Of a stretch of 64,000 nt of DNA, positions 15,918 to 30,212 are shown one piece after another (the first letter of the stretch is position 1; every line of letters begins with the position of its first letter). Under the pieces are notes generated by a model. It was not told where the DNA came from. It saw only the letters and a list, made by a program, of their open reading frames with translations, and did no database searches. This stretch comes from a phage. The position numbers were made by a program, and so were the translations under genes. Location of the stretch: NCBI GenBank assembly GCA_027337125.1, contig GCA_027337125.1_3057.1; one strand, written 5' to 3'.

Positions 15918-16697
15918 ATGAATTATACTAAAGTATATAATAATTTAATTAAGAAAGGAAAACTCAGAAAATTAGATAAATCTAAATTAAATTTTTATAC
16001 GGAAAAGCATCATATTATTCCATCTTGTATTGGTGGTAATGATGATTCTGATAATCTAGTTTTATTAACAGCTAGAGAGCATTTTATAGCCCATTGGCTT
16101 TTAGCTAAAATTCATTATAATTCGCCTGGATTAATTTATGCATGGTGGTCATTTTATAATTTTGGAGAAGATTCTTTAGGAAGAAATCTCAAATTAACTT
16201 CAAGAGGATATCAGTTAGTTAGAGAAAAATTTTCAAAAATACATTCTAATACAATGAAAGAAATGTGGAAGTCTAATGAATACAGAGAAAAACGTTCGAT
16301 AACATTAAGTCTTCCTGAAATAAGGGCTAAAATTTCAGAATCCCAGTTAGAAGCACAAAACAAACCGGAAGTTAAAGAAAAAATATCTAAAGGGGTGAAA
16401 GCTGCTTTTAAACGACCGGGAGTTAAAGAAAAACACTCTGCTGCAGTCAAAAAATCTTTGAATAATTTTGAAACTAAAAAGAAACAATCAAATTCATCTA
16501 AAATTAGACAAAGAACTGGTAAACATTGGCAAGACTATGACTTACTTTATAAGTTATGGATTAAATTAAATAGACCTAAACGCGGGTCATTCGGAACTTA
16601 TATAAGTAAATTAGGATATCCAAAATCTAATTATCATCGATTGATTGTACAATTTAATGAAGATTATGAAAGGTCTAATAATGAAAACTGTAGTTAA
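15918..16697 (+). CDS. HNH homing endonuclease (MobD-like)
   Basis: HNH motif EKHHIIPSCIGGNDDSDNLVLLTAREHFIAH plus repeated NUMOD-like PEVKEK/PGVKEK motifs. Confidence 0.75.
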   Translation: MNYTKVYNNLIKKGKLRKLDKSKLNFYTEKHHIIPSCIGGNDDSDNLVLLTAREHFIAHWLLAKIHYNSPGLIYAWWSFYNFGEDSLGRNLKLTSRGYQLVREKFSKIHSNTMKEMWKSNEYREKRSITLSLPEIRAKISESQLEAQNKPEVKEKISKGVKAAFKRPGVKEKHSAAVKKSLNNFETKKKQSNSSKIRQRTGKHWQDYDLLYKLWIKLNRPKRGSFGTYISKLGYPKSNYHRLIVQFNEDYERSNNENCS

Positions 16698-25816: not shown

Positions 25817-26290
25817 ATGTTATTGACTGGCAAATTATATAAAGAAGAAAAACAGAAATTTTATGATGCACAAAACGGTAAATGCTTAATTTGCCAACGA
25901 GAATTAAATCCTGATGTTCAAGCTAATCACCTTGACCATGACCATGAATTAAATGGACCGAAAGCTGGAAAGGTACGTGGGTTGCTTTGTAATCTCTGTA
26001 ATGCGGCAGAAGGTCAAATGAAACATAAATTTAATCGTTCTGGCTTAAAAGGACAAGGCGTTGATTATCTTGAATGGTTAGAAAATTTACTTACTTATTT
26101 AAAATCCGATTACACCCAAAATAATATTCACCCTAACTTTGTTGGAGATAAATCAAAGGAATTTTCTCGTTTAGGAAAAGAGGAAATGATGGCCGAGATG
26201 CTTCAAAGAGGATTTGAATATAATGAATCTGACACCAAAACACAGTTAATAGCTTCATTTAAGAAGCAGCTTAGAAAGAGTTTAAAATGA
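25817..26290 (+). CDS. 49: endonuclease VII (Holliday junction resolvase)
   Basis: 157 aa, zinc-binding CLICQ...C and HLDHDHE motifs; matches recalled T4 gp49. Confidence 0.9.
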   Translation: MLLTGKLYKEEKQKFYDAQNGKCLICQRELNPDVQANHLDHDHELNGPKAGKVRGLLCNLCNAAEGQMKHKFNRSGLKGQGVDYLEWLENLLTYLKSDYTQNNIHPNFVGDKSKEFSRLGKEEMMAEMLQRGFEYNESDTKTQLIASFKKQLRKSLK

Positions 26291-27108
26291 ATGTAGTATA
26301 TAAACTATCATTTGTTAATAGAATTAATGCTAAAACCCCGCCATATTATTACATTGGAAGTAAAACTAATTGCACTTTTGATGGAACGAATATTATTGAT
26401 AAAAATGGTAAATTTTATTATTCGTCTTCGTCATCTTCTGAATTTCAAAACGCTCTATTGAAAGAAACGCCGAAAGTTGAAATATTATATTTTCAATTAG
26501 TCGGAGATGAACAAATAACTAGCATTGAAGCTGAATTTCAAAAGAATGTAGAAAAAGATGTATGGAATAAAGAGTATTTTAATTTAGCATATGCTGATGG
26601 CCAATTTACGACATATGGTATTTCTCCTTCTAAAGAAACTAGAGAAAAGCAATCAATAACCATGATTAAAAGAAATCGTAATAAAGGCAAAAATCATGGA
26701 TTTTATGGAAAGCATCATACTAATTTAGCCAGAAAGAAAATATCAGAAGCTTCTAAAAAATACTGGAAAGAAAATCCACATCGTGGATTTTCGCATACAA
26801 AGGAAGCTAAAATTAAAATTGGAATTTCATCTTCTATCAGGCATAAAGGAAGTGGAAATCCGATGTATGGTGTAAAACCTTGGAAAACTCCGAGAGCAAT
26901 TAAATCTGGTACTTGTATATTATGGTTAAAATACGCAGAAATTTTATATGATTATTTAGGTCCAGATTTTAAAAGTAAATCATCTGTTTTTGTGGATTTA
27001 AACTTACCGAAATTTAGAATTGATAATTTCATCAAAAGGTTTAAAATGGGTTGGAACCCATATTTAGACGAAGAATTTCAAAAGGATAAATTAGAATTAT
27101 GTCTTTAG
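26287..27108 (+). CDS. GIY-YIG-type homing endonuclease-like protein
   Basis: VYKLSF...YYIGSK GIY-YIG-like N-terminus, NUMOD-like NHGFYGKHH and GNPMYG motifs; overlaps nrdD start. Confidence 0.6.
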   Translation: MNVVYKLSFVNRINAKTPPYYYIGSKTNCTFDGTNIIDKNGKFYYSSSSSSEFQNALLKETPKVEILYFQLVGDEQITSIEAEFQKNVEKDVWNKEYFNLAYADGQFTTYGISPSKETREKQSITMIKRNRNKGKNHGFYGKHHTNLARKKISEASKKYWKENPHRGFSHTKEAKIKIGISSSIRHKGSGNPMYGVKPWKTPRAIKSGTCILWLKYAEILYDYLGPDFKSKSSVFVDLNLPKFRIDNFIKRFKMGWNPYLDEEFQKDKLELCL

Positions 27109-28916
27109 AGAAAGATGTTTTAAATTTTATTTCAAATAAAGATAAAGAATTAAATACCGAAAATGCCAACAAAGATTCTCGTGTCTTTCCAACAAAAAGA
27201 GATTTAATGGCCGGTATTGTTTCTAAACATATCGCTTGTAGTATTCTTCCAAGCCATATTGTAAATGCTCATAATGCCGGGTTAATTCATTTTCATGATT
27301 TAGATTACAGTATATCATTGCCTTTTACTAATTGTTGTTTAGTAGATTTAAAAGGAATGCTTGAGAACGGATTTAAGCTTGGTAATGCACAGATTGAAAC
27401 TCCTAAATCAATCGGTGTTGCTACTGCAATTATGGCACAAATTACTGCACAGGTTGCTTCCCATCAATACGGCGGAACGACTTTTGCTAATGTAGATAAA
27501 GTACTTTCTCCTTATGTTAAACGCACCTATGCAAAACATATTGAGGATGCAGAAAAATGGCAAATCGCTGATGCGTTAAATTATGCTCAATCTAAAACAG
27601 AAAAAGACGTATACGATGCATTCCAAGCTTATGAATATGAAGTAAATACTCTCTTTAGTTCAAACGGACAAACGCCTTTTGTAACAATTACATTTGGTAC
27701 GGGAACTGACTGGACTGAACGAATGATTCAGAAAGCAATTCTGAAAAATCGTATTAAAGGTCTTGGTCGTGATGGGATAACTCCTATTTTCCCTAAGCTT
27801 GTTATGTTTGTTGAAGAAGGTGTTAATCTTTATAAAGACGATCCGAACTATGATATTAAGCAGCTTGCTTTAGAGTGTGCAAGCAAAAGGATGTATCCTG
27901 ATATTATTTCAGCTAAGAACAATAAAGCTATCACTGGTTCATCTGTTCCTGTTTCTCCAATGGGTTGTCGTAGTTTCTTGAGCATATGGAAAGATTCGAC
28001 TGGCAATGAAATTCTTGATGGACGTAATAATCTCGGTGTTGTAACACTGAATCTTCCTCGTATTGCGTTAGATTCTTATATTGGAACACAGTTCAATGAA
28101 CAGAAATTTACTGAATTATTCAATGAACGAATGGATTTGTGTTTTGAAGCTTTGATGTGTAGAATTAGTTCCTTAAAAGGAGTTAAAGCGACTGTTGCTC
28201 CTATTCTTTACCAAGAAGGCGCATTCGGGGTTCGTCTTAAACCTGATGACGACATAATTGAGTTATTTAAAAACGGTAGAAGTTCAGTGTCTTTAGGATA
28301 CATTGGTATTCACGAATTGAATATTCTTGTCGGTCGTGATATTGGACGAGAAATTTTAACTAAAATGAATGCTCATCTTAAACAGTGGACTGAAAGAACC
28401 GGATTTGCTTTTAGTTTATATTCGACTCCTGCTGAAAACCTTTGTTATCGCTTCTGTAAACTTGATACAGAGAAATATGGAAGTGTAAAAGATGTTACCG
28501 ATAAAGGCTGGTACACTAACAGTTTCCATGTTTCAGTAGAAGAAAATATTACTCCGTTTGAAAAGATTTCTCGTGAAGCTCCATATCATTTCATTGCGAC
28601 AGGTGGTCACATTTCTTATGTTGAACTTCCTGATATGAAAAATAACTTAAAAGGTCTTGAGGCCGTGTGGGATTATGCCGCACAACATTTAGATTATTTT
28701 GGTGTTAATATGCCAGTAGATAAATGTTTTACATGTGGAAGTACCCATGAAATGACTCCTACTGAAAACGGATTTGTTTGTTCTATTTGCGGAGAAACTG
28801 ATCCTAAAAAGATGAACACAATAAGAAGAACGTGTGGTTATTTGGGAAATCCGAACGAACGCGGATTTAATCTCGGTAAAAATAAAGAAATCATGCATAG
28901 GGTTAAACACCAATGA
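27099..28916 (+). CDS. nrdD: anaerobic ribonucleotide reductase NrdD (uninterrupted)
   Basis: 605 aa, C-terminal glycyl-radical motif RTCGYLG and zinc ribbon CFTCG...CSICG. Confidence 0.95.
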   Translation: MSLEKDVLNFISNKDKELNTENANKDSRVFPTKRDLMAGIVSKHIACSILPSHIVNAHNAGLIHFHDLDYSISLPFTNCCLVDLKGMLENGFKLGNAQIETPKSIGVATAIMAQITAQVASHQYGGTTFANVDKVLSPYVKRTYAKHIEDAEKWQIADALNYAQSKTEKDVYDAFQAYEYEVNTLFSSNGQTPFVTITFGTGTDWTERMIQKAILKNRIKGLGRDGITPIFPKLVMFVEEGVNLYKDDPNYDIKQLALECASKRMYPDIISAKNNKAITGSSVPVSPMGCRSFLSIWKDSTGNEILDGRNNLGVVTLNLPRIALDSYIGTQFNEQKFTELFNERMDLCFEALMCRISSLKGVKATVAPILYQEGAFGVRLKPDDDIIELFKNGRSSVSLGYIGIHELNILVGRDIGREILTKMNAHLKQWTERTGFAFSLYSTPAENLCYRFCKLDTEKYGSVKDVTDKGWYTNSFHVSVEENITPFEKISREAPYHFIATGGHISYVELPDMKNNLKGLEAVWDYAAQHLDYFGVNMPVDKCFTCGSTHEMTPTENGFVCSICGETDPKKMNTIRRTCGYLGNPNERGFNLGKNKEIMHRVKHQ

Positions 28917-29752
28917 ATTATGATAGATTTTATCCTTGCGATTTTGTGAATGATAAATTATCTTTAATATTTGAAGAAAATAATGATTTACTATTGTCAT
29001 ATGTTGATTTGATAACAAAAAATTATAATAATCCTAAAATAAAAGGAAAAACGGAAGCACATCACGTGCTTCCCAAATCTATATTTCCTGAATATAAAAC
29101 AGATAAATGGAATATTGTTAATTTGTCATATTATGACCACGCGTTAGCTCATTACTATTTAGCTAAAACAAGTAATAGTAAAATGTGTTATGCCTTTCAT
29201 AGAATGATAAACTCGAATACCGATAGATTTAATACAAATGAATTGGATGAAATTCTTAAATTGTATTCCAGCGAAAAGGAATTATTTCACCGCTCTATGT
29301 CAAAATTATCGAAAAATATATGGAAGGATGACGATTTTAGAAAAAGACATAGAGAACTAACTAAGTTAGCAATGCAAAAACCTGAAGTTAGAAATAAAAC
29401 TTTATTAAATTTGTCAAATGCAATGAAAACTGATGAAGTTAGAAATAAAATTTCCAGGCTAACTAAGTTAGCAATGCAAAAACCTGAAGTAAAAGAAAAA
29501 CATAGAAATTCATTGAAGTTGGCGTATGCAAATCCTGAGGTTATGAAAAGGAAACATCAGCGTCTTCGAGAAAAATATACTCTTAATTTATTTGGCGCAT
29601 ATAAAGATGGTGTTCTTTTAAAAACATTTAATTATATACCAGACGCAGCAAAATATTTTAATATTTCTAGCAAAGGAAATATTTTAAAATGTTTAAATGG
29701 CGAACGTAAAAGTGTTGAAGGCTATAATTGGAAATATATAAATGAATTATGA
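28913..29752 (+). CDS. HNH homing endonuclease (MobC-like) between nrdD and nrdG
   Basis: HNH motif EAHHVLPKS...YDHALAH; tandem NUMOD-like repeats; N-terminus duplicates nrdG start. Confidence 0.75.
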   Translation: MNYDRFYPCDFVNDKLSLIFEENNDLLLSYVDLITKNYNNPKIKGKTEAHHVLPKSIFPEYKTDKWNIVNLSYYDHALAHYYLAKTSNSKMCYAFHRMINSNTDRFNTNELDEILKLYSSEKELFHRSMSKLSKNIWKDDDFRKRHRELTKLAMQKPEVRNKTLLNLSNAMKTDEVRNKISRLTKLAMQKPEVKEKHRNSLKLAYANPEVMKRKHQRLREKYTLNLFGAYKDGVLLKTFNYIPDAAKYFNISSKGNILKCLNGERKSVEGYNWKYINEL

Positions 29753-30212
29753 CAGAATATACCCGTGCTGCTTCGTGAATGGCCCTGGATGCAGGACCGT
29801 TCTTTTCGTTACAGGTTGTTTGCATAAATGTGAAGGGTGTTATAATAAATCAACATGGAATGCTAGAAATGGTATTCCATTCACTGGTGAAACACTAGAA
29901 CAATTGATTGAATGTTTGAATAATGATTATATAGAAGGATTAACTATAACCGGAGGTGACCCTCTTTATCCTGATAACAGAGACGTGATTCACTCTGTGG
30001 TTCAAACTATTAAAAATCTTTATCCCAATAAAAGCATTTGGTTGTGGACAGGATATAAGTTTGAAGATATTAAACAACTAGAAATGCTTAAATATGTTGA
30101 TGTTATTATTGATGGGAAGTATGAGAAAAATCTTCCGACCAAAAAGCTGTGGCGAGGTTCAGATAATCAGCGACTTTGGTCAAATACCGATGGGGTGTGG
30201 AAACATGATTAA
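29742..30212 (+). CDS. nrdG: anaerobic RNR activating enzyme NrdG (radical SAM)
   Basis: 156 aa, cysteine cluster CCFVNGPGCRTVLFVTGCLHKCEGC. Confidence 0.9.
   Translation: MNYDRIYPCCFVNGPGCRTVLFVTGCLHKCEGCYNKSTWNARNGIPFTGETLEQLIECLNNDYIEGLTITGGDPLYPDNRDVIHSVVQTIKNLYPNKSIWLWTGYKFEDIKQLEMLKYVDVIIDGKYEKNLPTKKLWRGSDNQRLWSNTDGVWKHD

Follow-up and report, generated by a model that had tools for sequence, protein, structure and literature searches.

Homing endonuclease genes that lie inside other genes sit in introns or inteins, split the host protein or, in the case of MobA, depend on translational bypass. By what arrangement an HNH endonuclease gene can begin with the first codons of nrdG, end within the start of the same gene and leave NrdG in one piece is the question raised by the nrdD-nrdG junction in a stretch of 64,000 nt of phage DNA (NCBI GenBank assembly GCA_027337125.1, contig GCA_027337125.1_3057.1), which is referred to as the window throughout. 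The source phage is T4-like and belongs to the genus Tequatrovirus, its best matches being the Escherichia phages TadeuszReichstein, Paracelsus, BF15 and KK4 (~98% identity). We propose, with a probability of about 0.8, that a free-standing HNH cassette has settled in nrdG by homing, using the borrowed nrdG start for the endonuclease and supplying a spare start to nrdG (a start swap). The junctions, the origin of each copy of the start, the same architecture in two genera and the linkage to a rare nrdG allele with Cys in place of Asp10 could be shown by sequence comparison. The features concerned, including the open reading frames (ORFs), are as follows.

27099..28916 (+): nrdD, anaerobic ribonucleotide reductase, intron-less here (Pfam NRDD, E=7.6e-171)
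28913..29752 (+): predicted Mob-type HNH homing endonuclease ORF, 279 aa, MNYDRFYPCDFVND...
28913..28952 (+): resident nrdG 5' end (ATG, 13 codons and 1 nt), now the start of the HNH ORF; 40/40 to HNH-less phages
28953..29781 (+): 829-nt cassette, missing from HNH-less relatives (empty-site comparison, two genera)
28953-29741 (+): HNH body within the cassette
29742..29781 (+): imported, re-coded nrdG start ('CC allele', MNYDRIYPCCFVN), 9/40 nt unlike the resident allele
29742..30212 (+): nrdG, activase of the class III ribonucleotide reductase (RNR), 156 aa, MNYDRIYPCCFVNG... (Pfam Fer4_12, E=1.4e-48)

The nrdD stop codon TGA overlaps the ATG of the HNH ORF at 28913 as ATGA, while the HNH ORF stops 8 nt into the imported nrdG start (TGA, 29750-29752), so that HNH gene and nrdG overlap by 11 nt. 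Closer examination of the two starts revealed 31 identical positions among the first 40 nt, with the copies 829 nt apart. A preliminary description of the locus had given about 70% identity over 45 nt and a spacing of about 830 bp; both figures were reproduced (31/45, or 69%, over that length), the truly duplicated part being the first 40 nt. A 40-mer scan of both strands of the window gave a mean of 10.6 matches (sd 2.8), and the 31/40 match is unique in the window because the next-best site reached only 23/40. The copies differ by four synonymous codons and two replacements, F6I and D10C, while codon 14 (D versus G) already extends across the junction. Both ends of the HNH ORF consist of nrdG-start sequence, the resident copy contributing the first 13 codons in frame 0 and the imported copy, read in another frame, the final three codons and the stop.

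The origin of each copy became apparent from relatives without the HNH gene. In R5505, F1 and eight IMG/VR contigs, nrdD passes directly into nrdG via the same ATGA overlap, and the nrdG 5' end of R5505, F1 and contigs L017-L020 equals the HNH-start copy at 40/40 positions and not the one that precedes the window nrdG. The latter gene differs from nrdG of HNH-less R5505 at 9 positions in nt 1-40 and at 2 in nt 41-100, with nt 100-400 identical. Since R5505-like nrdG matches both the left copy and the gene body from nt 41, the left copy is the resident one and the right copy was imported. Compared with the empty site, 829 nt have thus been inserted in the window behind nrdG nt 40, and the final 40 of them form a diverged replacement nrdG start. 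The junctions read GTGAATG/ATAAAT on the left and GTGAATG/GCCCTGG on the right, and the cassette boundaries are ambiguous inside the shared GTGAATG (28946-28952 and 29775-29781). The suggestion in the preliminary description that the similarity is the footprint of an insertion was upheld by these relatives: far from lacking a contiguous counterpart, they have an nrdD-nrdG junction that equals the duplicated segment (40/40).

The same architecture was present in a second genus. The Klebsiella phages Roth04, UTI-K1 and SmallBear (Jiaodavirus) encode, at the corresponding nrdG position, an HNH protein with 86-88% identity, with a 77-aa ORF instead of nrdD upstream. Their HNH gene start, MNFDRIYPSDFVN, is 0-1/40 nt away from the nrdG start of the HNH-less Jiaodavirus contigs L030 and L039, while their nrdG restarts with MNYDRIYPCCFVNG and is 10-11/40 nt away from the local allele. 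Past nt 40 the local haplotype resumes, with 0-4/100 differences in Roth04 and UTI-K1 and 13-14/100 in SmallBear. The imported starts of both genera match each other at 34/40 positions and the local alleles at 30-31/40, and all six differences between the Tequatrovirus and the Jiaodavirus imported starts are synonymous. Nucleotide identity and synonymous divergence (dS) between the genera were distributed along the locus as follows.

HNH body: 85.2% nt identity, dS 0.87
Imported nrdG start (CC40): 85.0% nt identity, dS not computable
Left 40 nt: 77.5% nt identity
Rest of nrdG: 70.6% nt identity, dS 1.41
nrdD 3' end: 75.6% nt identity, dS 1.82

With the cassette at 85% and the flanks at 71-76%, the spare start belongs to the mobile unit and the left copy to the host, and because the cassette is less diverged than its flanks, the unit must have moved between the genera after their divergence. 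Comparison thus shows horizontal spread of the cassette between Tequatrovirus and Jiaodavirus. The ratio of nonsynonymous to synonymous divergence (dN/dS) of the HNH gene between the genera is 0.076, which indicates that the endonuclease is under strong purifying selection. In UTI-K1 (L051), the HNH gene at 1514-2350 is annotated as 'ribonucleotide reductase of class III (anaerobic), activating protein', presumably an error caused by the borrowed NrdG N-terminus.

These comparisons bear on how the two copies arose. According to the preliminary description, the endonuclease gene had inserted by duplicating its target; a duplication of the target site or gene start in situ, followed by divergence of the copies, would leave what is seen at first sight, namely two 40-nt direct repeats in the same frame flanking the HNH body. 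This part of the description did not hold, and we rejected in-situ duplication as very improbable, the copies being of different origin: the left one is the local allele at 40/40 positions, and the right one is the same foreign allele in two genera and differs from the resident sequence at 9/40 positions, yet the next 360 nt show only 2 differences to the HNH-less relative. A transposon-like target-site duplication, in which both repeats are the same resident sequence, was not found either, since the copies differ at 9-11/40 positions and the right one is foreign in both genera. Homing by double-strand-break repair, whose pathway is outlined in PMC2988022, makes no target-site duplications.

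The HNH gene was intact in 32 of ~840 matching phage records. All seven of the records inspected carried it inserted at nrdG nt 40, the site being empty in most relatives. Among Tequatrovirus records it occurs sporadically, in 22 of ~700 (about 3-4%). An IMG/VR scan with the HNH protein yielded empty-site nrdG starts only and no full-length relative. Within Tequatrovirus, the cassette occurs with more than one nrdG haplotype and has diverged less than the sequence on either side (0.4% versus 2.7-3.5%); TB004 and Ec_MI-02, for instance, differ at 3/789 positions in the cassette and at 21/600 in nrdD. Comparisons with ERS-1 and L039 were left out because they were disturbed by indels. This pattern is difficult to reconcile with vertical inheritance from an ancestor of Tequatrovirus and Jiaodavirus followed by loss in most lineages, which we consider unlikely. 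In such a scenario the cassette may now be immobile, domesticated or decaying and be kept because the nrdG start is embedded in it; an imprecise deletion would indeed take away the nrdG start, and among the mob genes activity has been shown for MobA and MobE alone (Edgell et al. 2010, PMC2988022). Vertical descent would not, however, account for a dS of 0.87 in the cassette versus 1.4-1.8 in the flanking genes, for a left copy that equals the local allele of empty sites in each genus, for near-identical cassettes on different local haplotypes, or for an intact, sporadically distributed ORF with the low dN/dS given above.

By family, the window protein is a Mob-type HNH homing endonuclease as judged from profile and motif matches. 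With E=3.1e-36 over residues 1-221 it falls into PHROG 655 ('homing endonuclease'), to which T4 MobC belongs too; it also matches PHROG 12434 ('HNH endonuclease', E=5.4e-15), and its HH...N...H motif was aligned with that of T4 MobC by BLASTP (E=1e-7). T4 MobC itself passes the Pfam HNH model (27.6 > 21.4 bits). Residues H50, H51, N67, H76 and H80 are invariant across the homologue alignment A1, and in the AlphaFold2 (AF2) model, with a mean predicted local distance difference test score (pLDDT) of 69, strands 47-51 and 68-72 and helix 73-84 form a strand-strand-helix arrangement. A PDB sequence-profile search with the protein gave no significant match. In the C-terminal region, PF22083 (E=2.3e-4, 21.1 bits, cut-off 27) and NUMOD1 PF07453 (E=5e-3, 17.4 bits, cut-off 22.8) both remained below the gathering score, while homologue P0007 passes both models. 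The domains map as follows.

29045..29164 (+): HNH beta-beta-alpha motif region, residues 45-84
29357..29504 (+): three 51-nt repeats with NUMOD3-like AMxKPEVxxK units (repeat search)
29621..29728 (+): I-HmuI/NUMOD1-like C-terminal helix-turn-helix, residues 237-272 (sub-threshold Pfam)

The 51-nt repeat units presumably form a DNA-binding linker. A natural variant of 242 aa (P0003) lacks 102 nt in this region and was probably shortened by repeat-mediated deletion. The protein could be ruled out as an orthologue of T4 MobC (NP_049689), to which 60 aa align at 38%. The window protein has 279 aa and T4 MobC 210 aa, and their C-terminal halves are unrelated; because these 60 aa alone align, the former is a positional analogue of MobC. 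Yersinia phage PST annotates the HNH gene as 'mobC', a label that is positional. PST (L002, 467-3317) has the group I intron of I-TevII in nrdD next to the same HNH cassette and the window nrdD lacks it, so that intron and cassette assort independently.

The distant homologues P0004-P0008 (29-36% identity) have unrelated N-termini, homology starting only from about residue 25-30, the AF2 model has a pLDDT < 50 for residues 1-19, and the ORF list contains no in-frame ATG from 28913 to the HNH motif. For these reasons the first 13 residues are best regarded as NrdG residues fused to the endonuclease. That the similarity is instead confined to generic N-terminal codons was an objection anticipated in the preliminary description. 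Mob-type HNH proteins natively start with MNYxxIY, which resembles the MNYDRIY of NrdG. T4 MobB begins with MNYLNIYNLLI and the window ORF 15918-16697 with MNYTKVYNNLI, and such a native start may account partly or wholly for the 21-nt similarity between the starts of T4 mobC and nrdG. For the window HNH gene, chance similarity was rejected and its probability is next to negligible, since in both genera the gene start equals the resident nrdG allele at 40/40 nt and follows the host genus, not the endonuclease, and since the nearest non-cassette homologues do not begin with MNY. For T4 mobC it is kept as a caveat. The ORF at 15918-16697 (+) encodes a second Mob-type HNH protein (259 aa, MNYTKVYNNLIKKG...HHIIP...), which is 32% identical to the 279-aa HNH protein over residues 35-214; its start indicates that MNYxxxY is a native Mob N-terminus.

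The imported start encodes an unusual NrdG. Of the best 120 cluster representatives, which come from phages and bacteria, 117 have Asp at residue 10; two have Cys, and these two read MNYDRIYPCC. In all 32 records with the HNH gene beside nrdG, the right copy is compatible with CC, and 7/7 inspected have this allele. All CC copies share Ile6 ATA, Pro8 CCR and Cys10 TGC as constant differences, and the three CC lineages show no amino-acid change despite 6/40 synonymous differences. Exact-pattern scans for the CC allele gave no match in IMG/VR and a single one in the JGI metagenomes, on a contig with a GIY-YIG gene in the position of segH. Among 619 full-length HNH-less Tequatrovirus junctions, the CC allele was present in three, U5 (L044), ESh24 (L045) and ERS-1 (L046). 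The U5-type sequence is the exact product expected from a deletion between the identical 11-nt starts (ATGAATTATGA) and equally the product expected from right-copy repair without copying of the endonuclease; the haplotypes on either side of the junction in U5 and ESh24 are nearest to those of genomes with an endonuclease gene, a weak signal. The nrdD-nrdG junctions of U5, RB27 and RB61 are said to have been sequenced by Sandegren and colleagues in 2005.

From these findings the following course of events can be proposed. The 829-nt cassette is inserted after nrdG nt 40, within the Gly14 codon of the conserved V-N-G-P-G motif, and the start swap involves no intron, intein or split protein. The endonuclease ORF would take over the resident nrdG initiation site (ATGA with the nrdD stop) and the first 13 codons, and the 3' end of the cassette provides a replacement nrdG start (ATG and 13 codons) joined in frame to the resident body, which also gives the endonuclease its stop. 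Scans for sigma-70 promoters and terminators gave uninformative background levels. Translation of the endonuclease may be coupled to nrdD and translation of nrdG to the endonuclease. In nrdG without the HNH gene, the enzyme would nick or cut within or close to the 25 nt that span the insertion point (nrdG nt 31-55, TTTGTGAATGGCCCTGGATGCAGGG), and the cassette would spread by double-strand-break repair during mixed infections. This stretch encodes F-V-N-G-P-G-C-R and is the longest identical run between the empty sites of both genera, between which nothing was found conserved upstream of the nrdG ATG. An element homing into both genera therefore needs homology, and most simply its target, in nt 31-55, and cleavage at the nrdG start is plausible because the junction sits in the only stretch conserved between both empty sites. 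The right junction of HNH-carrying genomes regenerates nrdG from nt 31 onward and differs upstream. An exact duplication would rebuild an intact site, and the re-coded spare start is therefore what self-immunity would require: its Ile6 ATA, Pro8 CCR and Cys10 TGC codons may stop the right junction from serving as a substrate, the left junction presumably being broken up by the insert itself. The rare endonuclease-free CC junctions are candidate scars of loss or repair, or candidate immunised alleles.

Several observations weigh against this account or parts of it. No Pfam HNH model matches the window HNH protein, and the top Foldseek match against PDB, I-HmuI (1u3e), is weak (E=0.43, with a model pLDDT of 69) and counts as supportive evidence at most. 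The CC allele was also observed behind a GIY-YIG gene in the mobC position, which we take to be the segH of Sandegren and colleagues and which RB3, RB5, RB6 and RB7 annotate as 'segD'; it was present in 4/4 inspected cases (fPS-2, PM108, CE1 and a metagenome contig) and, by BLAST, in RB3/5/6/7. Similarly, it lies behind some T4-type mobC genes (215Ecol030PP, SHFML-11 and ELT1), while T4, T4T and HP3.2, with a T4-type mobC, retain Asp10. An uncultured T4-like lineage (P0010; L053-L055) has the CC allele and no endonuclease gene. The codons of this lineage differ (CGA for Arg5, TGT for Cys10), which makes the allele an old one. CC thus goes with more than this HNH gene, and it could confer immunity to another nuclease or simply be donor-lineage sequence. 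In the latter case the mobile start-swap element would be real, but the CC start would be hitch-hiking donor sequence that rebuilds the nrdG ORF, and immunity would come from site disruption alone, or the enzyme would cut elsewhere or its own genome too. SegH, for one, reportedly cuts its own DNA as well. Polymorphisms of the MobA cassette alone failed to block nicking (bioRxiv 10.1101/2022.08.31.505936), which points the same way. We would put this possibility at rather less than even, since at the right junction an identical duplication would restore nt 1-65 as an intact site, the substitution strikes an Asp conserved in 117/120 homologues, the peptide is unchanged over the three CC lineages, and the HNH-carrying records are CC-compatible throughout, compared with 3/619 empty Tequatrovirus sites. 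Free-standing T-even endonucleases often cut far from their own genes, so that the cut site may lie away from the junction. For T4 mobC, a free-standing gene, Edgell et al. 2010 (PMC2988022) give 'activity ND, target unknown'.

The start swap shares features with several known systems. T4 mobC resembles the window HNH gene in its nrdD-nrdG locus, its membership of PHROG 655, its HH...N...H motif, its start on the ATGA of the nrdD stop and its end (..KDEL*), which lies within the nrdG start and overlaps it by 11 nt. In contrast, it represents a 210-aa and not a 279-aa lineage, and only 21 nt (7 codons) are common with the nrdG start, which may be native Mob sequence. In T4 (L004, 4800-5620, - strand), the first 21 nt of mobC match nrdG at 19/21 positions (MNYDRIY). 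Instead of a 40-nt spare start, T4 mobC is accompanied by an extended stretch of divergent nrdG sequence (nt ~40-300), unlike the window at 95 positions, that looks like a long co-conversion from a foreign donor. Both nrdD and nrdG serve as targets of seg as well as mob genes (Edgell et al. 2010, PMC2988022). The MobA/gene 60 bypass cassette of T4 (Bonocora et al. 2011; bioRxiv 10.1101/2022.08.31.505936) is likewise an HNH cassette inside conserved coding sequence with an insert-derived, diverged target copy (homR), and the extra sequence of MobA prevents self-nicking. However, it splits the topoisomerase into two tailed polypeptides and needs a 50-nt translational bypass, whereas NrdG here is in one piece and only its first 13 codons are replaced. 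The Aeh1 mobE 'genes-in-pieces' nrdA (Friedrich et al. 2007) has a free-standing Mob gene in a ribonucleotide reductase ORF without intron or intein, but it yields two reassembling NrdA fragments; in the window, a 13-residue N-terminal piece is fused to the endonuclease and no protein is split. SegF/gene 56 and SegG/gene 32 (Belle 2002; Liu 2003) also combine a free-standing endonuclease with a co-inherited variant of the neighbouring target allele. Their genes are intergenic with long co-conversion tracts, while the variant linked to the HNH gene is a 30-40-nt segment structurally in the cassette. No description of this start swap was found in the literature searched; Sandegren et al. 2005 may have noted parts of the arrangement.

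Other endonuclease genes at this hotspot follow related patterns. The GIY-YIG gene in the segH position captures resident codons, brings a re-coded end of the neighbouring gene and is linked to the same CC nrdG allele, but it sits in the last nrdD codons, not in nrdG, and shows no 40-nt nrdG duplication. Its true ATG lies in native nrdD codons (ATGCATAGG, MHR), and the cassette (Yersinia phage fPS-2, L042, 1040-1939; L056, L057) supplies a re-coded nrdD 3' end (..GTPSVVPWNLGKMKEMVKRVKHA versus ..GNPNERGFNLGKNKEIMHRVKHQ) that reads ..KEMVKRVKHA*. The fPS-2 annotation of this gene starts 96 nt late and truncates the GIY-YIG motif. In Escherichia phage 215Ecol030PP (L043, 1050-1850), the junction is a mosaic of a segH-type re-coded nrdD end, a native nrdD-end remnant, a T4-type mobC and a CC-type nrdG, which suggests that an endonuclease gene at the hotspot gave way to a different one; by BLAST, the junctions of SHFML-11 and ELT1 look alike. 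Upstream of nrdD, the window contains two further genes.

25817-26290: gp49, endonuclease VII
26287-27108 (+): seg-like GIY-YIG/NUMOD3 ORF (PHROG 7504, E=8e-35)

The seg-like ORF starts on the ATGA that forms the gp49-stop/nrdD-start in endonuclease-less ESh24, and behind it the 5' end of nrdD (27099-27160) has ~20 diverged codons (MSLEKDVLNFISNKDKELN versus MTIEKEIEGLIHKTNKDLLN). Judging from these two ends, the ORF follows the same logic of capturing a start and bringing a replacement 5' end, with only 4 nt shared.

By its architecture, the HNH cassette belongs with the free-standing T-even homing endonucleases, a very well-known class, and differs in that it replaces the first 13 codons of its host gene while keeping the old ones for itself, a mechanism that can itself be tested. 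Tentatively, and with some doubt, this may be extended to a general strategy of a 'portable gene start', in which homology to the first ~65 nt would suffice for homing across genera whatever lies upstream, the Asp10->Cys NrdG would be a dedicated immunity allele shared or contested by three endonucleases (the HNH enzyme, the segH-position GIY-YIG enzyme and T4-type MobC), and the endonuclease-free CC phages U5, ESh24 and ERS-1 would be immunised survivors. In practice, automated annotation is misled by the borrowed N-terminus, as in the 'RNR activating protein' of UTI-K1. If cleavage and immunity are true, the locus would supply this HNH enzyme with a precisely defined target of ~25 bp and a naturally resistant allele, would explain the odd replacement of a near-invariant NrdG residue, and would offer a tractable system of competition between three endonucleases at a single T-even locus.

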